DNA of 13,972 nucleotides, taken from NCBI RefSeq assembly GCF_001945605.1, contig NZ_MPKA01000078.1, positions 1 through 13,972 on the forward strand, read 5' to 3'. Position numbers and translations under genes: made by a program. The stretch comes from Dubosiella newyorkensis (GTDB taxonomy: Bacteria > Bacillota_I > Bacilli_A > Erysipelotrichales > Erysipelotrichaceae). The notes beneath the pieces are model-generated. The model did not search any database and had not been told where the DNA came from. It worked only from the letters and a program-made list of their open reading frames with translations. Of this stretch, positions 6,954-13,972 are shown one piece after another (position 1 is the stretch's first letter; each line of letters starts with the position of its first letter).

Positions 6954-7524
6954 GCGAATCGGCCCATTGGATCTTTCCATTCTCGATCTGCTGGATAGGC
7001 GCGAGCGAAAAGAGAGGATAGTGTTTATCTACGATATAGGTATGACCGGCTTGGAACACCTTTTCGATGAGCGCGGCTACGCCTACGATTTCTCCACCAG
7101 CTTCTAGGATCAAACGCTCCGCGCCCTTGAACGCTTCGCCATTGGCTAAAAAGTCGTCCAAAAACAAGATCTTGTCGTGTGGCGACAAATATTTACGTTC
7201 CACGCACAACGTATACGCTTTTTGTTTCGTGTAAGAAAAAACTTGGGTATAGAGCGGATCTTCCATCGTGTTTGGCTCGCTCTTTTTCATAAAGAGAAGC
7301 GGAACGCGCAGTTTGGTGGCAAGCGCGTAGGCTGGCGCGATCCCGCCCGATTCGATCGTCACGATCTTCGTGATCGGCAGATCCTTCACTTGCTCATAGA
7401 AAGTGGTGGCGATCTGCTCCATCAAAACGGGATCAATTTGATGGTTGAGAAAGGCGTCTACTTTGATCAGATCCGTGCCTAAGCAAGTACCTTCAGCTTC
7501 GATTTTCTTTTTCAGTTTCTCCAT
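6943..7524 (-). CDS. xpt: Xanthine phosphoribosyltransferase.
   Basis: 193 aa. The N-terminus (LGTDLIKVDAFLNHQIDPVLM), the IESGGIAPA segment and the PRPP loop (ILFLDDFLANGEA) are collinear with Bacillus/streptococcal Xpt as I remember it. Confidence 0.85.
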   Translation of the reverse strand: MEKLKKKIEAEGTCLGTDLIKVDAFLNHQIDPVLMEQIATTFYEQVKDLPITKIVTIESGGIAPAYALATKLRVPLLFMKKSEPNTMEDPLYTQVFSYTKQKAYTLCVERKYLSPHDKILFLDDFLANGEAFKGAERLILEAGGEIVGVAALIEKVFQAGHTYIVDKHYPLFSLAPIQQIENGKIQWADSLIF

Positions 7525-8665
7525 CTACCATTTCTCCTTTGATTTTTTCGACGATCGTTTTTCCGACCCGGTGGTTCAAGATCTCTTTCACTTCGACGCG
7601 CAGCTGCGGCAAGTCGACCGTGATCGTCGTCCCATCGCTTGGAATGTGGCCATAGCTTCCGAGCACATAGCCGCTAAATGTATCGTAGTCGTCGACTGGA
7701 AGCTCGATTTTCAATTCTTCTTGCACGTCTTTCAGGTCGGCGAAGCCATAGATCTCCCATTTGTTTTCGCCCAATGAAACGATATCTTCTGGCTCGATCT
7801 CGTCTTCCGGCTCGTACATTTCTCCTAAAAGCGTTTCGATGATATCGTGCAACGTCACGATGCCAGTCATGCCACCATACTCGTCTAAAATGATGGCGAA
7901 GTAGGTTTTTTGCGACTTCATCTCATTGAAGACATCGTCGACCTTGCCGTTTTCTGAAATAAAGAGCGGATGATCGACCGCGTGGGCGAGCACGCACTCT
8001 TTGCTCGTGTCGTCTAGACGGAAATAATCGCGCGTGTCGAGCACGCCGATCACATCGTCATCGTCCTTGCCTGTGATCGGATAAAACGTATGCCGATTTT
8101 CATGAATGATCTTCTTCCACTCTTCTGCGCTTTCGTCCATGGAAAGCGAAATCACTTGCGAGCGGTGCGTGCAGATTTCCTCGATGCTCGTATCATCGAG
8201 ATCGAAGACGTTTTCAATGATTTCTTTTTGAGGTTCGTCGATCGTTTCGCTCTCGCTGGCCGCGTGGATCATTTCCCGGATCGCTTCTTCCGACAGATCG
8301 GCTTGTTTTGGGGCCGGATCGATCGGAACAAAGAACGTGAAGATCGAGAAGACTTGCGAGATCCTTAAAAAGAAAGGAAAGAGCGTCTCGATCTGTTCAG
8401 GATGCGTATGGGCATAATGGCGCGGAAGGAGCGTGCCAAAAATAAACGAACTATATAAATAGAGGACGAACACGATCCATGGCGCGAGCCGATCCGATTC
8501 GAAAGCGAACCATAGACCGCCTAAGATCGAAGCTAAATTCAAAAATAAGATTGTTTTACGGACATGTTTTCCTGTCGTGTCCGAATGCTCCTCGAGCACG
8601 ATCTGCCCGATCGTGAACAAGGCGTTCAAGGCAATACAAGCCAAAGAAAGCACGCTATAGATCAT
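7493..8665 (-). CDS. CNNM/CorC-HlyC family transporter: DUF21 membrane domain, CBS pair and CorC_HlyC domain.
   Basis: ORF track 7493..8818. Start trimmed to the ATG at 8665, which has AAGGAGA 7 nt upstream. The N-terminus is hydrophobic. A CBS-pair region follows (THRSQVISL...FYPITGKDDDDVIGVLDTRD...AIILDEYGGMTGIVTLHDIIETLLGE). The transporter-associated C-terminal domain includes YDTFSGYVLGSYGHIP. Confidence 0.8.
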   Translation of the reverse strand: MIYSVLSLACIALNALFTIGQIVLEEHSDTTGKHVRKTILFLNLASILGGLWFAFESDRLAPWIVFVLYLYSSFIFGTLLPRHYAHTHPEQIETLFPFFLRISQVFSIFTFFVPIDPAPKQADLSEEAIREMIHAASESETIDEPQKEIIENVFDLDDTSIEEICTHRSQVISLSMDESAEEWKKIIHENRHTFYPITGKDDDDVIGVLDTRDYFRLDDTSKECVLAHAVDHPLFISENGKVDDVFNEMKSQKTYFAIILDEYGGMTGIVTLHDIIETLLGEMYEPEDEIEPEDIVSLGENKWEIYGFADLKDVQEELKIELPVDDYDTFSGYVLGSYGHIPSDGTTITVDLPQLRVEVKEILNHRVGKTIVEKIKGEMVDGETEKENRS

Positions 8666-8754
8666 AGTCGTGTCTCCTTGGGCCAACTGTCGTCTGAATT
8701 CATAGATTCTCCTTTTCTTACTTGTATTCTTAATCATACACAAAAAGAACAATA

Positions 8755-8781
8755 TTGAAAATATAAATATGTGCTTATAAT
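8755..8781 (+). promoter_or_regulatory. Candidate promoter for the alpha-galactosidase gene: TTGAAA, 15-nt spacer, TATAAT.
   Basis: TTGAAA at 8755-8760 and TATAAT at 8776-8781. The 15-nt spacer is short, so confidence is modest. AAGGAGAG lies just before the ATG at 8808. Confidence 0.4.
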
Positions 8782-8807
8782 AGGAGTATATAAAAGAAGG
8801 AGAGACT

Positions 8808-11033
8808 ATGCCGATCATTTATCATTCTTCATCGCGAACCTTTCATCTTTACAACGCTAGGATGAGCTATATTCTCAAAGTTTTAAAAAATGGGCACATC
8901 GCCCAGCTGTATTGTGGAAAAAAGATCCATGACCGAGAGGATTTTGACGCGCTTCTCGAACTCGAGCCTAAGCCAATGTCTGTGTGCGCCTACAAAGAAG
9001 ATCCCGCTTTTTCACTCGAACATATCAAGCGGGAATTTCCAAGCGCCTTAAGCGGCGATATGCGGATGCCTTCGATCGATGTGCGTCAAGAAAATGGCAG
9101 CCGGATCTTGAATTTTGTCTACCAGGATCATGCGATCTTTTCAGGAAAGCCTGCTTTAGAAGGGCTTCCTGCCACCTATGTGGAACGGGAAGAGGAGGCG
9201 AGCACGCTCCATATTCATTTGTATGATGAAGTGTGCCATCTCAAAGCGATCCTTCAATATTCGATCTTTGAAGAGCGGAACGTTCTTTCAAGAAGCGTAC
9301 GCCTTGAAAACGAGGGAGAGCAAACGCTCGTTTTGGAGCGCTTGGCTTCGCTCAATTTAGATTTGCCAGATTCTGATTATGATTTTGTGGATCTGAAAGG
9401 CGCATGGGCTCGCGAGAGACACATTCAAGTGCAGCCATTGCATCCAGGGATTCAATCGATCTATTCGATCCGCGGTCATTCTTCAAACAACTTCAATCCA
9501 TTTCTTGGCTTGAAGCGCAAGAACGCCACAGAAGCGGCTGGAGAGATGCTTGGCTTTACGCTCGTATATTCGGGAAATTTTTTAGCCCAAGTGGATGTGG
9601 ATGTGTATGATACCGCTCGCATCAGCATTGGAATGCATCCTTTCACTTTTTCGTGGCCGCTTCTTCCTTCCAATCATTTTCAAAGTCCGGAGGCGCTTTT
9701 TGTCTATTCCGATCAAGGAATGAATGGCATGTCGCAGACGTTCCACAAGCTGTTTCGAGAACGTCTTTGTAGAGGGCCATGGAAATCAAAGGCGCGTCCG
9801 ATCTTGATGAACAACTGGGAAGGAACGTATTTTGATTTTGACGAGGACAAGATCTTGAAGATGGCAAAAGAAGCCAAAGCGCTTGGGGTCGAATTGTTCG
9901 TGCTGGACGATGGATGGTTCGAAGGGAGAAATTCGGACACGTCTTCGCTTGGCGATTGGTGGCCAGATCGAACAAAGCTGCCTGAGGGAATCGATGGGCT
10001 TGGAAAGAAAATCGAATCGATGGGGCTTCGTTTTGGTTTATGGATCGAGCCGGAAATGGTCAATGAAAAGTCGGAATTGTATGAAAAACATCCAGATTGG
10101 GTGCTTGGCGCGCCTGAGCGTTCTATGTCGCAGGGGCGTCATCAATATGTGCTTGATTTTTCGAATCTAGAGGTGGTGGACTATATTTTTGGCTTGTTGG
10201 TCAAGGTGCTCGATGAGGCGCCGATCTCGTATGTGAAATGGGATATGAATCGTTCTATGTCGGAAGTGTATTCGTTGGCGTCTTGTTCTGAAGAGCAAGG
10301 CACGATCTATCATCGATATATTCTTGGCGTGTATCGTTTGTATTCGATGTTGATCGAGCGTTATCCGCATATTTTGTTTGAATCGTGCGCGTCAGGAGGA
10401 GCGCGCTTTGATCCGGGAATGTTGTATTACGCGCCGCAAACATGGACGAGCGACGATACGGATGCGGCCGAGCGCATCAAGATCCAATATGGAACGAGCG
10501 TGCTTTATCCGCTTTGTTCGATGGGCTCGCATGTTTCGGCGATCCCGAACCATCAGCTCAATCGGAACACGCCATTACAGACGCGCGCTGAGGTCGCGTA
10601 TTTTGGAACGTTTGGTTATGAGCTCGATCCGTTAAAACTAGACGAGGAAGAAAAAAAAGCGATCAAAAAGCAGATCGAGTTTATGAAGAAATATCGGGAA
10701 TTGATTCAGTTTGGCACGTTTTATCGTTTGGTGTCGCCTTTTGAGAAAAACGAGTGCGCTTGGATGGTCGTCTCTGACGATCGAAACACGGCGATTGTCG
10801 CCTATTATCGGATCTTGCAGGAGGTGAACGCGAAATATCGGCGCTTGTATCTGCAAGGACTCGATCCAAACAAGGTGTACCGGATCGAGGGCAAAGATCG
10901 TCTTTATTATGGGGATGAGCTCATGTATGCGGGACTTGTGAATACGGATGCTTCTTGCGGAGAGCAGAATTTGAAGGCGCAAGAGGGAGATTTCTTGTCT
11001 CGGCTCTATATTTTGCATGGAAAGGATCTATGA
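8808..11033 (+). CDS. Alpha-galactosidase, glycoside hydrolase family 36 (AgaA/RafA/MelA type).
   Basis: 741 aa with a strong SD. GH36 hallmarks are present: NNWEGTYFDFDE, FVLDDGWF, GLWIEPEMV, YVKWDMNR, FESCASGGARFD and QTWTSDDTDAAERIKIQYG. Confidence 0.9.
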   Translation: MPIIYHSSSRTFHLYNARMSYILKVLKNGHIAQLYCGKKIHDREDFDALLELEPKPMSVCAYKEDPAFSLEHIKREFPSALSGDMRMPSIDVRQENGSRILNFVYQDHAIFSGKPALEGLPATYVEREEEASTLHIHLYDEVCHLKAILQYSIFEERNVLSRSVRLENEGEQTLVLERLASLNLDLPDSDYDFVDLKGAWARERHIQVQPLHPGIQSIYSIRGHSSNNFNPFLGLKRKNATEAAGEMLGFTLVYSGNFLAQVDVDVYDTARISIGMHPFTFSWPLLPSNHFQSPEALFVYSDQGMNGMSQTFHKLFRERLCRGPWKSKARPILMNNWEGTYFDFDEDKILKMAKEAKALGVELFVLDDGWFEGRNSDTSSLGDWWPDRTKLPEGIDGLGKKIESMGLRFGLWIEPEMVNEKSELYEKHPDWVLGAPERSMSQGRHQYVLDFSNLEVVDYIFGLLVKVLDEAPISYVKWDMNRSMSEVYSLASCSEEQGTIYHRYILGVYRLYSMLIERYPHILFESCASGGARFDPGMLYYAPQTWTSDDTDAAERIKIQYGTSVLYPLCSMGSHVSAIPNHQLNRNTPLQTRAEVAYFGTFGYELDPLKLDEEEKKAIKKQIEFMKKYRELIQFGTFYRLVSPFEKNECAWMVVSDDRNTAIVAYYRILQEVNAKYRRLYLQGLDPNKVYRIEGKDRLYYGDELMYAGLVNTDASCGEQNLKAQEGDFLSRLYILHGKDL

Positions 11034-11042
11034 AAAAAAACG

Positions 11043-11567
11043 TTGTATTTGGTTGTCGTGAAGGATGATGACTTGCTTTCTCCATATTGGGCATATCGGC
11101 CGATCGTATTGGATGAGGCGGCTAGAGCGATCGACAACTGTCTGCAAGGCTTGAGCCTGCAGAAAAAGGATGAATTGGTGATCGAGATCGCTAGCGATGT
11201 GATCGTCAAATCGGAGCAGAAGGTGTATGCCAAGGCGATTCATACGTATTATCGAAATCGTTTGAGCGAAGAGGCGCGGAAATTGCGGCATACTCGAAAT
11301 TCTTCGTTTTTCTTGTTCATAGTGGGCGTGATCGTTTTGGTGGGGATCTAGATCTTGCAGGTTTTCGATCTGCATCCTGTCGGGAAAGAAGTGATGGATA
11401 TTACCGCTTGGGTGTTTATTTGGCAGGCGACGTCTCAATTTTGGCTCGATCGCCATTCGATCGTGATCAAGGAAAGCAAGATGCGAAAACTATCTAAGTG
11501 CGATGTTCGTTTCGTTCCTCTAGATGCAAAGACTCGAAAGATCGTGGAGAAGGAAAGACAAGAATAA
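11043..11567 (+). pseudogene. Small two-TM membrane protein gene of unknown family, interrupted by an in-frame TAG at 11349-11351. The start codon is also uncertain.
   Basis: Track ORFs 11043..11351 and 11355..11567 are in the same frame and are separated only by a TAG. The stop falls inside a predicted TM helix (SSFFLFIVGVIVLVGI*ILQVF). Codon usage resembles the neighbouring genes. The track start is a TTG with no SD at a usable distance. Confidence 0.5.
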
Positions 11568-11582
11568 GATAAAAAGAAAAAA

Positions 11583-11619
11583 AGAGATGGAGGAAGCAAA
11601 GCTTCTGACATCTCTTTTT
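11583..11619. terminator. Bidirectional intrinsic terminator shared by the convergent membrane-protein ORF and the CBS-pair gene.
   Basis: The stem AGAGATG (11583-11589) pairs with CATCTCT (11609-11615), and an inner GAAGC/GCTTC helix is possible. An A-rich run lies upstream and TTTTT downstream, so a U-tract is available on both strands. Confidence 0.7.
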
Positions 11620-11624
11620 AGTAT

Positions 11625-12101
11625 TTAGCGAACGTGAAGGAAAGGGTTGATCGTCTCTTTTGTTTCTTGATTGTAAAAGTAGTTGTCCTTGTGCAAGGAC
11701 GCTTCTTTCATCAAGTAGGAAATGATCGTTTTTCGAGTGACGATCCCGATAAAGATATTTCGATCATCAACGACGGGCACATAGTTTTGTTCGAGAGATT
11801 GCTGGAACAGCTCGTTCATCGATACGCTTGAAGATACGGCGGGCATAAAATCTTTGCGCACGATTTCACTGATTTCTAGCTCGAGCACATCCTCATGACA
11901 AAGATCAGGATGATCGGCGATATAGTATAAAAAATCCCCTTCTGTGATAGATCCTAAATAATGGCCTTGAAAGTCAATGACTGGAGTTGCTGTATAGCCA
12001 GCGTCCCGAAACAAACTCAAGGCTTCCGCAAATGACAAATTCCCATAAAGATACTGCGTATTTTTTTTGTTTTGTAAAAAAAAGAAAATATTTTGTTGCA
12101 T
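11625..12101 (-). CDS. Stand-alone CBS-pair protein (YkuL/CbpB-like).
   Basis: 158 aa. There are two CBS motifs, FRDAGYTATPVIDFQGHYLGSIT and LEQNYVPVVDDRNIFIGIVTRKTIISYL. These resemble the Bacillus YkuL pattern (TKTGYTAIPVLD...). Any functional link to c-di-AMP is inference only. Confidence 0.75.
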   Translation of the reverse strand: MQQNIFFFLQNKKNTQYLYGNLSFAEALSLFRDAGYTATPVIDFQGHYLGSITEGDFLYYIADHPDLCHEDVLELEISEIVRKDFMPAVSSSVSMNELFQQSLEQNYVPVVDDRNIFIGIVTRKTIISYLMKEASLHKDNYFYNQETKETINPFLHVR

Positions 12102-12173
12102 GAACCATCACTTTCTAGTAAGAACGTTCGGATCTTGTGCCAAAAATCCTAAGATCTTTTCTTTTACAATTTC

Positions 12174-12202
12174 ATTATAGAGAAGCACGCGTAGATTTTA
12201 AA
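12174..12202 (-). promoter_or_regulatory. Candidate proximal promoter of the CBS-pair gene: TTTAAA, 17-nt spacer, TATAAT.
   Basis: On the minus strand, TATAAT is the rc of 12174-12179 and TTTAAA sits at 12197-12202, with a 17-nt spacer. A second candidate with an extended -10 (TGCTATAAT, rc of 12273-12281) lies further upstream. Confidence 0.35.
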
Positions 12203-12339
12203 CGAATTGACTGACTTTACCGGCGTAAAAGGAAAGGCTGGTCAATGCGAGCTCTCTCTATCGTTCGTGCTCATTATAGCAAGATTGTTCTATAAAATTT
12301 ATTAAGTTTTCGTTAAGAATGCGCTTACATGTTTTCATG

Positions 12340-12372
12340 AAAACAAAAGAAAAGAGCGATCGAGATCGCTCT
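12340..12372 (-). terminator. Intrinsic terminator, functional on the minus strand only.
   Basis: The stem AGAGCGAT (12353-12360) pairs with ATCGCTCT (12365-12372) around a CGAG loop. On the minus strand it is followed by TTTCTTTTGTTTT (rc of 12340-12352). There is no U-run on the plus strand. Confidence 0.65.
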
Positions 12373-12670
12373 AGCCTTGCGTAGATCTTGTTGATTTGTG
12401 CGCTTGTGGCCAGCTTGTTTTCCAAGACCGAAAAAACAAGCATTCAAACGAGGATTCCGGCGAAATGTATCCGCAAGAGACACCAACATTTCGAATTCTC
12501 ATTATTCATAAGAAGTGAATCTTGTTGACGTATGAATAGAAGATCGCATTCTTAGCCGTATTTAATCGTGCGAACTCACAGCCTTCTAAAAAACCCCCGT
12601 TTGAAAGAAAACTGCCTGAATGAAAAATGTAGATGAATACGTTCGCTTGTATTTGGAATCTTTCTCTAAT

Positions 12671-12698
12671 GATTAATAAAATTGTTAATTTATTAATC
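12671..12698. promoter_or_regulatory. Perfect 10-bp inverted repeat, GATTAATAAA-N8-TTTATTAATC. It is either an operator or a 5' stem-loop.
   Basis: Read directly from the sequence. It lies immediately downstream of the predicted transcription start of the minus-strand consensus promoter. Confidence 0.5.
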
Positions 12699-12706
12699 CA
12701 TGAGCT

Positions 12707-12735
12707 ATTATAAGAGGATTGATAGGGCTTGTCAA
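12707..12735 (-). promoter_or_regulatory. Perfect sigma-A consensus promoter on the minus strand: TTGACA, 17-nt spacer, TATAAT.
   Basis: The rc of 12730-12735 is TTGACA and the rc of 12707-12712 is TATAAT, with an exact 17-nt spacer. No gene start lies downstream of it for about 600 nt. Confidence 0.65.
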
Positions 12736-12744
12736 TGGCTTTTT

Positions 12745-12775
12745 TTGCGACGTGCAATTCTTCGTCTGCTATACT
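12745..12775 (+). promoter_or_regulatory. Candidate promoter of the ArsR-fusion gene, with an extended -10 (TGCTATACT).
   Basis: TG at 12767-12768 and TATACT at 12770-12775. A weak -35, TTGCGA, sits at 12745-12750 with a long 19-nt spacer. The GGGGTGA SD and the ATG at 12794 follow. Confidence 0.4.
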
Positions 12776-12793
12776 TAAAAAAGGGGTGAGTGC

Positions 12794-13777
12794 ATGGCGA
12801 TCTATCAGCCTGAAATCGTATATTTGCATGTGGATGAAGATAGCTTGCCTTTTTTTCAAGCGATGGCCAGCAAAGTACGGATTGAGATCATTCAAATGCT
12901 CAAAAAGAAGGAGATGTCGATCAAAGAAATGAGCGAAGAACTCCATCTTTCGAGCGCGATCGTCACAAAACATATCCAGACGCTCGAAGAGGCGGGTATC
13001 GTTTCTTCGCGTTCGATCAGTGGTAAGCGGGGCCTCAAAAAAATGTGCAGCTTGCAGATCAACGAGGCCCAAATCATTTTTGATAATAATTATGGCGAGA
13101 AAAAGCGTTCTTTCATTCAAGTCGATATTCCGATCAGCGCCTATGATCGGTGCGAAGTGTTCGCGCCTTGCGGCATGGCGGAAGCCGATAAATTGTTTGG
13201 ACGGATCGATGATCCGCGGTATTTTAAAGCGTCCAATCGCAATCGCGTCTCTTTGTTGTGGTTTTCTGCAGGGTATTTAGAATATCCGATCCCGCTTTTT
13301 GATGTGGATCTAAGCGAGATCAAGGAGATCGAGATTTCGATGGAGGTCTGCAGCGAGTATCCGGGCTTCAATAGCCGTCATTTGTCCGATCTGACTTTTT
13401 CGATCAATGGGATCGAAGTTGGTTCGTGGACGAGTCCGGGCGATTTTGGCGACCGGAAAGGAAAATATACGCCGGCTTGGTGGTCGTTAGGGACCGAATA
13501 TGGTTTGAAGAAGACGCTTGTCTTGAAAGAAGAGGGTGTCTATATCGATCATGAAAAGATTTCGGATGTCGCGCTTTCAACTTTGATCAAGGCCCAAAAG
13601 GATCCGGAAATCTTGCGTTTTAAGATCGAAAGCAACAAGGACGCAAAGCATCCTGGAGGATTGAATATTTTTGGCCGCCAATTTGGAGATTATGATCAAG
13701 ATATCGAGGTCCGCTTTATGCGAAAAGAAAAGCAGAAGGAACATGAAAATCGGTATGATCAGCCCCCTGTCAAGTAG
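12794..13777 (+). CDS. ArsR-family winged-HTH regulator fused to a C-terminal domain of about 220 aa with unknown function.
   Basis: 327 aa. The N-terminus (FQAMASKVRIEIIQMLKKKEMSIKEMSEELHLSSAIVTKHIQTLEEAGIV) is a classic ArsR/SmtB wHTH. The remainder (..CEVFAPCG...WFSAGYLEYP...EVCSEYPGF...PGGLNIFGRQFGDY..) matches no domain I can name. Confidence 0.8.
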   Translation: MAIYQPEIVYLHVDEDSLPFFQAMASKVRIEIIQMLKKKEMSIKEMSEELHLSSAIVTKHIQTLEEAGIVSSRSISGKRGLKKMCSLQINEAQIIFDNNYGEKKRSFIQVDIPISAYDRCEVFAPCGMAEADKLFGRIDDPRYFKASNRNRVSLLWFSAGYLEYPIPLFDVDLSEIKEIEISMEVCSEYPGFNSRHLSDLTFSINGIEVGSWTSPGDFGDRKGKYTPAWWSLGTEYGLKKTLVLKEEGVYIDHEKISDVALSTLIKAQKDPEILRFKIESNKDAKHPGGLNIFGRQFGDYDQDIEVRFMRKEKQKEHENRYDQPPVK

Positions 13778-13791
13778 ACACGGGAAATAAT

Positions 13792-13972
13792 TTACTGGAG
13801 ATCCGCCTCTTTAATAGCACTTGCTATTAAAGAGGCCTTTTTTTCATCTATACCTTCCCAGTATTTTTTGATTCGTTTATTCTCTTTGATTGGATACAGT
13901 ACCGGTTCATCGGTTGCTTTTGCAGCTTCTCTTACTTCAGATGCAGTAAGACCGTGAAAACGTTCCTGCGGA
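13792..13972 (-). CDS. Transposase C-terminal fragment (rve/DDE-type, probably IS3-family OrfB). The gene enters from beyond the right window edge.
   Basis: Not in the ORF track because it is open at the edge. Hand translation of the minus strand gives ...PQERFHGLTASEVREAAKATDEPVLYPIKENKRIKKYWEGIDEKKASLIASAIKEADLQ*, with the stop as the rc of 13792-13794. R.HGLT..EVR resembles the end of the integrase-core domain. The family assignment is tentative. Confidence 0.45.
   Translation of the reverse strand, partial: PQERFHGLTASEVREAAKATDEPVLYPIKENKRIKKYWEGIDEKKASLIASAIKEADLQ
13805..13844 (+). terminator. Strong intrinsic terminator on the plus strand.
   Basis: A 14-bp perfect stem, GCCTCTTTAATAGC (13805-13818) with GCTATTAAAGAGGC (13823-13836), closes an ACTT loop. 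C plus T7 (13838-13844) follows. Confidence 0.75.

Follow-up and report, generated by a model that had tools for sequence, protein, structure and literature searches.

A candidate regulator-controlled noncoding RNA gene at the position of a GH2-MFS_2 operon in Dubosiella newyorkensis

An intergenic region of Dubosiella newyorkensis contains a promoter-to-terminator unit that is real in sequence terms and that has, in our estimate, an even chance of being a stand-alone, regulator-controlled noncoding RNA gene. The unit lies on the minus strand of the window, by which we mean the whole 13,972-nt stretch of contig NZ_MPKA01000078.1 that was analyzed, and its predicted noncoding transcript of ~360 nt, delimited by a promoter and a terminator, extends from the start site to the end of a U tract (12340 to 12700). 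Related species carry the same regulator, promoter, and repeats in front of a sugar-utilization-type operon of a GH2 glycosidase and an MFS_2 symporter, and D. newyorkensis has a species-specific sequence in its place.

Anatomy of the promoter-to-terminator unit

The gap from 12102 to 12793 is bounded by the start of a CBS-pair gene on the minus strand (12101) and by the ATG of an ArsR-type regulator gene on the plus strand (12794), and these flanking gene starts bear out the 692 nt given for it in an earlier note on this DNA. The minus strand of the gap has a -35 hexamer TTGACA (12730 to 12735) and a -10 hexamer TATAAT (12707 to 12712), with transcription predicted to start at ~12700. Judged by the sigma-70/sigma-A pattern (TTGACA, TATAAT, and a spacer of 17 ± 1 nt), this predicted promoter scores 12 of 12 matches with a 17-nt spacer, and it is the sole perfect promoter match within 11500 to 13972 (TTGACA-17-TATAAT, 12735 to 12707); it was rightly called a textbook promoter in the earlier note. 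Seven lineages have the -35 hexamer unchanged at the homologous position, and Dubosiella muris has TTGACA-16-TATAAT in the same place.

The other end of the unit is an intrinsic terminator, the stem-loop AGAGCGAUCUCGAUCGCUCU (12353 to 12372, minus strand), which has eight pairs (four of them GC) and a 4-nt loop, is invariant in 31 assemblies, and forms with a pairing probability of 0.97 in the Boltzmann ensemble. Directly 3' of the stem (12372 to 12353), the minus strand reads TTTCTTTTGT, including the U tract UUUCUUUUGUUUU (12340 to 12352), and the plus strand has the stem without a T run after it. The combination of a GC-rich stem-loop and a following UUUCUUUUGU is found on the minus strand only, in agreement with the claim that the terminator works on one strand. 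With its own promoter, its own terminator, and no translated ORF, the unit has the predicted makeup of a stand-alone sRNA gene.

The CBS-pair gene follows on the same strand, with the terminator between the 12735 promoter and the gene, and the earlier note offered as an alternative that the unit is a long attenuator-type leader, in which conditional terminator read-through from 12735 expresses CBS. The unit shares with riboswitch, T-box, and attenuator leaders a structured 5' region that is followed by an intrinsic terminator and a downstream gene on the same strand, and a 10-nt segment (12545 to 12554) is complementary to 12314 to 12323, which lies beyond the terminator. However, no riboswitch or T-box match and no aptamer was found, and the terminator is 250 nt away from the CBS ATG, an interval that has two promoters of its own outside the unit. 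One is the CBS gene's promoter TTTAAA-17-TATAAT (12174 to 12202, minus strand), in which D. newyorkensis, M10-2, D. muris, and OPF54 all carry an unchanged TATAATGAAA; the other is a second CBS-side element, TTGCTATAAT, with an extended -10 (12277 to 12285, minus strand), the aligned counterpart of which in three related species is TTTGATACAAT. Over the 200 nt preceding CBS, homology extends to the sequence upstream of CBS in three related species, and this interval occurs in these relatives without the unit. The interval is also polymorphic, unlike the unit, and the promoter and operator of the unit belong to the cassette of the regulator and GH2 rather than to CBS. Because the CBS promoters are its own and are conserved across species, the leader reading fails, and we regard it as very unlikely.

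The regulator, its probable operator, and the operon of related species

The gene divergent from the unit (12794 to 13777, plus strand) encodes a 327-amino-acid ArsR/SmtB-type winged-helix regulator (Pfam HTH_5/HTH_20) with a C-terminal beta-sandwich domain of ~230 amino acids. In the AF2 model (pLDDT of 91), the C-terminal domain resembles CBM/lectin-type beta-sandwiches, and this CBM-like fold is only a hint that the ligand of the regulator may be of a sugar type. Among strains, the gene has 24 synonymous versus 10 nonsynonymous variable codons, a pattern that indicates an intact regulator under purifying selection.

Homologs of this regulator in seven lineages, including D. muris, are always divergent from an operon encoding a GH2 glycosidase and an MFS_2 symporter, which has the same TTGACA promoter followed by ATTAAY-N2-ATTARC repeats. 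The loci of D. muris, Ileibacterium valens, Faecalibaculum rodentium, and other Erysipelotrichaceae are thus similar to that of D. newyorkensis in the regulator family (57 to 71% identity), the divergent layout, the invariant TTGACA, and the position of the repeats 8 to 9 nt after the -10 hexamer. They differ in what the promoter serves: in the relatives, it leads through a 50- to 75-nt leader with a Shine-Dalgarno sequence into GH2, whereas in D. newyorkensis it leads through 335 gene-free nucleotides to a terminator. The promoter was described as an orphan in the earlier note, but it is not one by origin, being a homolog of the regulated promoter of the GH2-MFS operon. L011 was considered as a GH2-less variant and rejected, as its "454-aa" gene is a GH2 gene cut by the contig end. 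No account of this regulator family together with GH2 operons was found in a literature search.

In D. newyorkensis, the candidate operator (12671 to 12698) consists of ATTAAT (12697 to 12692), aa, ATTAAC (12689 to 12684), aatttt, and ATTAAT (12677 to 12672), a conserved repeat pattern; nowhere else in the gap is the nucleotide sequence similar to that of relatives. Each locus that has a close homolog of the regulator contains a single ATTAAYNNATTARC motif, always 8 to 9 nt past the -10 hexamer, and the motif has no match in 84 other loci. A repeat site that is conserved among orthologs and overlaps the promoter and start is in keeping with an operator of the ArsR/SmtB type. Since ATTAAY-N2-ATTARC repeats are conserved after the -10 hexamer of the relatives, the first hairpin of the unit (12671 to 12698) is probably the DNA operator of the divergent regulator and not, as the earlier note had it, an RNA helix; the ATTAAT/ATTAAC repeats are conserved as sequence, and those of D. 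muris yield no 10-bp hairpin. The regulator would bind to this site and is presumably the repressor of the promoter at 12735 to 12707.

Origin of the transcript body

In place of the operon, D. newyorkensis has ~335 nt of species-specific noncoding sequence and the terminator, and the transcript body (12373 to 12670, minus strand) is hairpin-rich and shows no coding signal. A pseudogene remnant was considered as its source and rejected, as tblastn searches of the gap with GH2, MFS_2, and neighboring proteins from seven lineages, D. muris included, returned only noise (E > 0.04). Local nucleotide alignments of the body with the operons of the relatives were no better than those of shuffled sequences, and a resemblance, noticed by eye, of the post-operator sequence to the Shine-Dalgarno/ATG region of D. 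muris GH2 comes to ~10/21 matches and is not significant. The locus is clearly rearranged, and another decaying gene is present in it.

The earlier note proposed looking for conservation in relatives, and the body proved to have no homolog in 124 fetched related-species loci or by way of ORF translation; it is known only as variants at least 97.8% identical. Because the body lacks a homolog outside the species, covariation cannot test whether it is a structured RNA. BLAST searches of plasmid and phage collections with the body also gave no match.

Within-species constraint

The sample for the polymorphism analysis comprises 31 D. newyorkensis assemblies, which represent 16 haplotypes of one species and are not independent. 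Among these assemblies, the stretch from 12340 to 12698 has 4 segregating sites in 359 nt and a nucleotide diversity (pi) of 0.0013, the lowest of any 359-nt stretch in 4.6 kb; a few coding stretches are equally invariant. Compared with this 1.1% (4/359), a pseudogene ~1 kb away, at 11040 to 11567, has 43 segregating sites in 582 (7.4%; pi of ~0.03; Fisher P = 4e-6), all other intergenic DNA has 33 in 606 (P = 4e-4), and the regulator gene has 44 in 984 (P = 0.002). Variation sets in again at both ends of the predicted transcript, at 12335/12331 on one side and at 12705, between the -10 hexamer and the predicted start, on the other. When the window is compared with a strain of 97.8% identity, the longest run free of differences, 12331 to 12705, likewise corresponds to the predicted transcript. 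No other noncoding stretch of the locus is as poor in polymorphism as the unit, and the conserved block matches the predicted transcript in extent. In the 16 haplotypes of this one species, the pattern indicates purifying selection on the transcribed region, and owing to this unusually strong within-species conservation, the unit is a credible new regulatory RNA gene, though not a proven one.

These data bear on the possibility that the unit is a functionless relic, in which GH2-MFS was deleted or decayed and the regulated promoter fires into leftover DNA that ends at a terminator, the transcript being noise. Such a history would agree with the presence of GH2-MFS at this position in every related lineage, with a body that has neither a homolog nor a recognizable function, and with a rearranged locus that holds another decaying gene. 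Neutral DNA should, however, vary like the pseudogene, from which the unit departs in both the share of segregating sites and pi, and the conserved block ends where the transcript ends. In addition, no remnant of the coding sequence of GH2 or MFS is found, and regulator, promoter, and operator have all been kept, so that we consider a relic unlikely.

Known RNA families and coding potential

The covariance models of Rfam 15, including those of tmRNA, RNase P, 6S, SRP, T-box, riboswitches, SR1, and RatA, gave no match at the gathering score in the whole window. The best subthreshold scores in 12000 to 12900 were those of PhrS (19.2 bits versus a gathering score of 37) and RatA (21.2 versus 49), relaxed thresholds and searches of the relatives' loci gave no match, and ARAGORN predicted no tRNA or tmRNA gene in 12000 to 12900. 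The earlier note saw no T-box, purine-riboswitch, tmRNA 3'-end, or RNase P signature, and the region matches no known RNA family in the Rfam and ARAGORN searches; the note's description of the region as ORF-poor and without Shine-Dalgarno sequences also stands. None of the minus-strand ORFs of the gap is preceded by a Shine-Dalgarno sequence, and the reading frames of the 54- and 61-amino-acid ORFs are shifted in 9 of 30 assemblies by two different homopolymer indels, which lie at 12436 in 2 assemblies and at 12335 in 7.

Translation of a small protein, either the 21-amino-acid MNNENSKCWCLLRIHFAGILV (12509 to 12444) or the product of the 54-amino-acid ORF (12489 to 12325; a hypothetical protein at NCBI), was weighed against these observations. 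The 54-amino-acid ORF has been called in ~200 contigs, with RefSeq accessions, and the single substitution in the 21-amino-acid ORF (12456) is synonymous. Apart from the frameshifts and the missing Shine-Dalgarno sequences, a database search with the 54-amino-acid ORF among 1.84 billion representatives returned same-species matches only, no Pfam match was obtained, and the conservation spans the full 360 nt and not one ORF. A small-protein gene is thus highly improbable, and the unit is noncoding. Nor does it resemble a type I toxin-antitoxin system, as its ORFs lack Shine-Dalgarno sequences and are frameshifted among strains and RatA is far below threshold. The 54-amino-acid ORF shares a 90% cluster with 465-amino-acid LuxR-type membrane proteins and was considered as a truncated gene; BLASTP detects no similarity, and the clustering is therefore an artifact. 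A concatenated six-frame query against a 5.8-billion-sequence collection returned nothing, and the positive control P0136 was likewise missed by this search, which is therefore uninformative.

Hairpins and folding

The hairpin richness claimed in the earlier note is well founded. The 396-nt region has five perfect inverted repeats (at least 8 bp, loops of 3 to 25 nt) versus a mean of 0.19 in dinucleotide shuffles, a count that none of 1,000 shuffles reaches and that is the maximum of the window for any 396-nt stretch. The four helices named earlier all exist as perfect inverted repeats, of 10 bp (12671 to 12680/12689 to 12698), 9 bp (12413 to 12421/12433 to 12441), and 8 bp each (12503 to 12510/12531 to 12538 and 12461 to 12468/12486 to 12493), but only two of them are favored in the Boltzmann ensemble, namely, 12698 to 12689/12680 to 12671 (P of 0.99) and 12441 to 12434/12420 to 12413 (P of 0.79). 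For the remaining two there are competing pairings, among them a 12-bp long-range helix (12604 to 12593/12455 to 12444).

The fold z-score is -3.7 for the minus strand and -3.2 for the plus strand, and the strand can therefore not be told from folding energy. Each of the strong stems is a perfect palindrome, symmetric between the strands and able to fold equally well on both, as would be expected of DNA-level elements, and one of them is built of the operator repeats. The palindromes could accordingly be protein-binding or recombination sites, or the remnant of a MITE/PATE-like element homogenized by gene conversion, and an IS element adjoins the regulator in some strains. Against this, spacers of 11 to 20 nt are unusual for transcription factor sites, the conserved block has a promoter at one end and a terminator at the other, plasmids and phages yielded no match, and neither a second copy of the body nor convincing terminal repeats were found in the window. 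The contigs of ~29 assemblies run unbroken through the unit, yet many break at the neighboring IS, which argues for a single-copy unit. A DNA-level element is, on balance, distinctly unlikely.

Proposed mechanism

For the noncoding RNA gene, we infer its expression, inducibility, regulator binding, RNA structure, and target as follows. The ancestral cassette, as retained in D. muris, Ileibacterium, Faecalibaculum, and others, would have had the ArsR-type regulator divergent from a strong TTGACA promoter that drives GH2 and MFS_2, with the ATTAAY repeats at approximately +2 to +30 as the operator of that promoter. D. newyorkensis would have kept the promoter, operator, and regulator, with the operon replaced by ~335 nt of hairpin-rich noncoding sequence and a terminator. 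When no sugar-type ligand is present, the regulator may occupy the ATTAAT/ATTAAC repeats, which follow closely on the -10 hexamer, and block the promoter, and the bound regulator probably also blocks its own overlapping plus-strand promoter. When the ligand is present, the regulator would leave the operator, and a discrete ~360-nt RNA would be made and terminated at 12340 to 12372. As purifying selection appears to extend across the whole transcript, the RNA product itself would be functional, and it is most likely a trans-acting riboregulator tied to carbohydrate use.

A target was sought within the window. Predicted RNA-RNA duplexes with the translation starts of 11 window genes are diffuse and loop-rich, with no convincing complementarity; an outlier at the gene at 597 to 1340 was rejected because its pairing is rich in G-U and involves a sequence that forms a hairpin of its own, and no complementary match of more than 13 nt was found outside the gap. 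A literature search found no transcript maps of D. newyorkensis. We tentatively propose, as a possibility that is less likely than not, that the output of a carbohydrate-sensing repressor has been switched from an enzyme and transporter operon to a de novo lineage-specific RNA of ~360 nt, which would be a selected, ligand-inducible riboregulator or protein-sequestering RNA controlling other sugar utilization genes, with the adjacent GH36 alpha-galactosidase locus as a possible target.

Comparison with known systems and significance

Stand-alone sRNAs under the control of transcription factors are known in Firmicutes, such as SR1 of Bacillus subtilis, which is repressed by CcpN/CcpA, and the CcpA-repressed RsaI of Staphylococcus aureus. 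The unit would be analogous to these sRNAs in being independent, with a strong sigma-A-type promoter, a repressor site over the promoter or start, an intrinsic terminator, and a link to carbohydrate status, whereas it differs in its length (~360 nt versus at most ~200 nt for SR1), its restriction to a single species, and the absence of a sequence or structure match to these or any other Rfam families. The birth of sRNAs from decayed genes or captured promoters is a concept from the origins of enterobacterial sRNAs; here, too, a preexisting regulated promoter now drives noncoding sequence at the position of a lost operon, but the body has no demonstrable GH2-MFS ancestry. Young sRNAs are usually described as fast-evolving, in contrast to the strong within-species constraint on the D. 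newyorkensis unit.

If the RNA is not real, the region is an ordinary scar of operon loss. If it is real, it would show cleanly, in a natural case, how a new regulatory RNA gene is born, and should the switched-output reading also be true, this birth of a regulatory RNA by promoter capture would be dated and well bounded. The sister species D. muris still has the donor state, in which GH2-MFS is driven through the same regulator, promoter, and operator; the derived state is fixed and constrained in D. newyorkensis, and the origin and function of the unit are therefore directly testable. D. newyorkensis is a common, much-studied commensal of the mouse gut, so strains and metatranscriptomes are available. 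The analysis also provides a candidate operator (ATTAAY-N2-ATTARC) and a candidate target operon for an uncharacterized, widespread family of ArsR-type regulators whose C-terminal domain is carbohydrate-binding-like.

Promoter-terminator unit upstream of the CBS-pair gene

The 692-nt intergenic gap at 12102-12793 separates the minus-strand CBS-pair gene (11625-12101) from the plus-strand gene (12794-13777) of a 327-aa ArsR/HTH_5 regulator, identified by exact protein look-up as OLU45951/BO225_07575 of Dubosiella newyorkensis, a species of Erysipelotrichaceae from the mouse gut. Its minus strand carries a TTGACA-17-TATAAT promoter (12735-12707), matching at 12 of 12 positions in the promoter scan, and, ~335 nt downstream, a terminator-like hairpin (12372-12353) followed by UUUCUUUUGU; the opposite strand has no T run, making the terminator strand specific. 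The gap, promoter, and one-strand terminator described in the earlier note are all borne out. The heptamer GCGAUCU occurs twice on this strand, once across the terminator's 5' arm and loop (12363-12369) and once in the body, 170 nt upstream (12541-12547); pairing of this second copy with the terminator 3' arm could give an anti-terminator-like alternative, and a single 7-mer repeat could also be due to chance. A perfect 16-bp palindrome, TGTTTTCATGAAAACA (12330-12345), lies directly 3' of the U tract; a SNP at 12331 is common, and 7 of 30 assemblies have an A-run indel at 12335. Apart from one additional base at its center, the palindrome resembles a CodY-box core.

The cmscan search proposed earlier gave no Rfam match at the gathering score and nothing credible at lower scores, and ARAGORN found no tRNA or tmRNA; the unit belongs to no described RNA family. 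A target search limited to the window was uninformative.

The unit had alternatively been read as an attenuator-type leader of the CBS-pair gene. The 200 nt upstream of this gene (~12095-12290) can be aligned with the corresponding regions of Firmicutes bacterium M10-2, Dubosiella muris, and Erysipelotrichaceae bacterium OPF54. Within the alignment are an invariant TATAATGAAA (12180-12171), which belongs to a TTTAAA-17-TATAAT site (12202-12174), and another conserved element, TTGCTATAAT (12285-12277). Both elements are downstream of the terminator, and a long CBS leader is therefore quite improbable. Past TATAATGAAA, a conserved block (12110-12180, minus strand) reads GGGACTTTTGGTCTGGCACCC in relatives (fetched loci L013 5890-5945, L012, and L014) and AGGATTTTTGGCACAAGATCC in the window; it may form a small conserved leader hairpin, and its loci gave no Rfam match.

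Inherited promoter and candidate operator

Homologues of the regulator (57 to 71% identity) are present in D. muris, Ileibacterium, Faecalibaculum, and other relatives. A GH2 glycosidase gene is divergent from the regulator gene in all seven fetched lineages and is followed, wherever the contigs reach far enough, by an MFS_2 symporter of the glycoside-pentoside-hexuronide type; compared with them, Dubosiella newyorkensis is the sole exception to this layout. The GH2-strand promoter of every relative has an invariant TTGACA and a -10 of TATAAT, TAGAAT, or TATCAT, with ATTAAY-N2-ATTARC 8 to 9 nt past the -10 and a third copy at a variable position. The repeats are ATTAAT-aa-ATTAAC-aatttt-ATTAAT in the window and, with identical spacing, ATTAAC-ta-ATTAAC-aaatag-ATTAAC in D. 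muris. The pattern ATTAAYNNATTARC occurs exactly once in each locus with a close regulator homologue, always at this distance past the -10, and was not found in 84 other loci. The promoter, which had been called an orphan, is thus one whose homologues, with the repeats, precede GH2 in all seven lineages, and the promoter and candidate operator of the unit belong to the GH2-MFS regulatory cassette that this comparison defines.

Because ATTAAT is its own reverse complement, the repeats form a 10-bp palindrome in D. newyorkensis, but not in D. muris. What is conserved in the element is therefore its sequence, as in a protein-binding site, and not a helix, and the hairpin at 12671-12698, previously listed as the first RNA helix, is better described as inherited operator-like repeats. 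We infer that the ATTAAY repeats are a candidate operator of the regulator. They lie at about +2 to +30, and a repressor bound at that position would block the promoter; they also overlap the -35 of the regulator gene's own candidate promoter on the plus strand (12682-12711).

The regulator gene is maintained, as its variable codons among strains include 24 synonymous and 10 nonsynonymous ones. An AF2 model of high confidence (pLDDT 91) predicts a winged helix and a C-terminal beta-sandwich, which among solved structures comes closest to carbohydrate-binding modules, lectins, and Cry-toxin domain III; this predicted fold would fit a response to sugar, without proving it. The family, which is widespread and uncharacterized (homologues P0002 to P0120 from Erysipelotrichaceae, Paenibacillus, Lactobacillaceae, Rhizobiales, and others), combines the ArsR-type winged helix with a beta-sandwich of ~230 aa that has no Pfam model, and its invariant residues include C126, G127, D139, W156, E184, E188, and D217. 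An IS element (HTH_21 plus rve integrase) has inserted right at the regulator gene's 3' end, and the window stops within it (13756-13972); strains lacking the element have an alpha-amylase/GH13 gene at this place and a regulator of 320 aa, not 327 aa.

Noncoding body and predicted fold

After the operator, GH2 follows in the relatives behind a 50- to 75-nt leader with a Shine-Dalgarno sequence; in D. newyorkensis, the terminator is reached after 298 nt (12670-12373). This body showed no trace of GH2, MFS_2, or neighboring genes by tblastn, no nucleotide similarity to the relatives' operons above that of shuffles, and no match in plasmid and phage collections. In the comparison with these relatives, the operator stretch was the only portion of the gap with nucleotide similarity, so the conservation named in the earlier note as a check does not extend to the body. 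A small-protein gene is the least probable reading: every minus-strand ORF lacks a Shine-Dalgarno sequence, the 54- and 61-aa ORFs are thrown out of frame by homopolymer indels, in 2 assemblies at 12436 and in 7 at 12335, and a search of 1.84 billion representative proteins with the RefSeq-annotated 54-aa ORF matched only variants from the same species. On these grounds, the body, correctly described as ORF poor, is predicted to be noncoding and, as far as the searched collections show, confined to one species. Clustering of the protein collection at 90% identity places the 54-aa product (12325-12489, minus strand) under a 465-aa LuxR-type membrane protein; the two share no similarity, and this clustering artifact could mislead automated annotation.

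Within 396 nt, the unit region contains five perfect inverted repeats with stems of 8 bp or more (0.19 expected), a count reached by none of 1,000 shuffles and the maximum across the whole window. Folding z-scores are -3.7 on the minus strand and -3.2 on the plus strand, and therefore folding energy does not pick the strand. All four helices proposed earlier are perfect inverted repeats, but the ensemble strongly favors only the first, the 12441/12413 helix, and the terminator; the other two face competitors such as a 12-bp long-range helix (12604-12593/12455-12444). The few variants within the transcript are compatible with the predicted structure: 12671 C>U turns a G-C pair of the first helix into G-U, the 12436 deletion shortens a loop, and the singleton 12569 A>U is uninformative, since the predicted pair that it breaks is weak. 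The sequences are too uniform to yield covariation.

Constraint within the species

The plus-strand region 11040-11567 is a homologue (37% identity, E = 4e-41) of the 185-aa gene located next after the regulator gene in D. muris. All strains share an in-frame stop at 11349-11351 in this region, and several have additional frameshifts or stops, so that it is probably a pseudogene; the ORFs called there (102 and 70 aa; 97 to 111 aa in other strains) are fragments of one gene of ~175 aa, and the antisense 142-aa ORF (11028-11456) is probably spurious. No other part of the locus is as polymorphic as this pseudogene, whose 43 segregating sites in 582 nt serve as a local neutral benchmark. In most Erysipelotrichaceae, a CNNM/CorC-type transporter gene follows the CBS-pair gene on the same strand, directly adjacent in several genera (L012 to L036); in D. 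newyorkensis (7493-12101), an opposite-strand GH36 alpha-galactosidase gene and the pseudogene lie between them. The listed CNNM ORF and the start of GH36 share 11 nt (8808-8818); the CNNM gene therefore probably begins further inside this ORF.

The locus has the same arrangement in all 31 D. newyorkensis assemblies that contain it, which represent 16 haplotypes of one species (the most divergent 97.8% identical), include nonindependent metagenome assemblies, and were compared without an outgroup. The predicted transcript (12340-12698) has 4 segregating sites in 359 nt (pi = 0.0013), namely, two singleton substitutions, one homopolymer indel, and one operator change. The corresponding values are 9 of 238 (pi = 0.018) for the CBS-upstream DNA (12102-12339), 44 of 984 (pi = 0.0135) for the regulator gene, and 6 of 477 (pi = 0.005) for the CBS gene. 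The unit differs from the pseudogene with a Fisher P value of 4e-6 across the 31 nonindependent assemblies and from all other intergenic DNA with a P value of 4e-4. Its pi is the lowest of any 359-nt stretch in 4.6 kb, and it is matched in its small number of variable sites only by a few stretches within the CBS and GH36 coding sequences. Polymorphism reappears just past the U tract, at 12335/12331, and on the promoter side at 12705, which lies between the -10 and the start; 12331-12705 is also the longest difference-free run within 5.5 kb against the 97.8% strain. The promoter and terminator by themselves predict a transcript whose extent is that of the conserved block, and this agreement is our main argument for selection on a transcribed product.

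A functionless scar of operon loss would account for the origin of the unit but leaves this constraint unexplained, and we regard it as unlikely. Still less likely is a DNA-level element or repeat, which would fit the perfect palindromes but is at odds with the boundaries and the apparent single-copy state. A multicopy repeat homogenized by conversion could mimic the low diversity; against such a repeat, the assemblies pass unbroken through the unit, and it is at the IS element next to the regulator gene that many of them are interrupted.

The reading with the most support, to which we give roughly even chances, is that of a stand-alone noncoding RNA gene with a functional product; the promoter and operator homology is much firmer. 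Of the earlier reading, the promoter-terminator unit outside known RNA families stands and the first hairpin as an RNA helix probably does not. The unit is a credible species-restricted candidate regulatory RNA, whose transcription would be gated by the ArsR-type regulator. It may be likened to the transcription factor-gated sRNA genes of Firmicutes, such as that of the sugar-responsive sRNA SR1 of Bacillus subtilis. A captured regulated promoter with a lineage-specific RNA in the place of a former operon would match proposed routes of sRNA birth.
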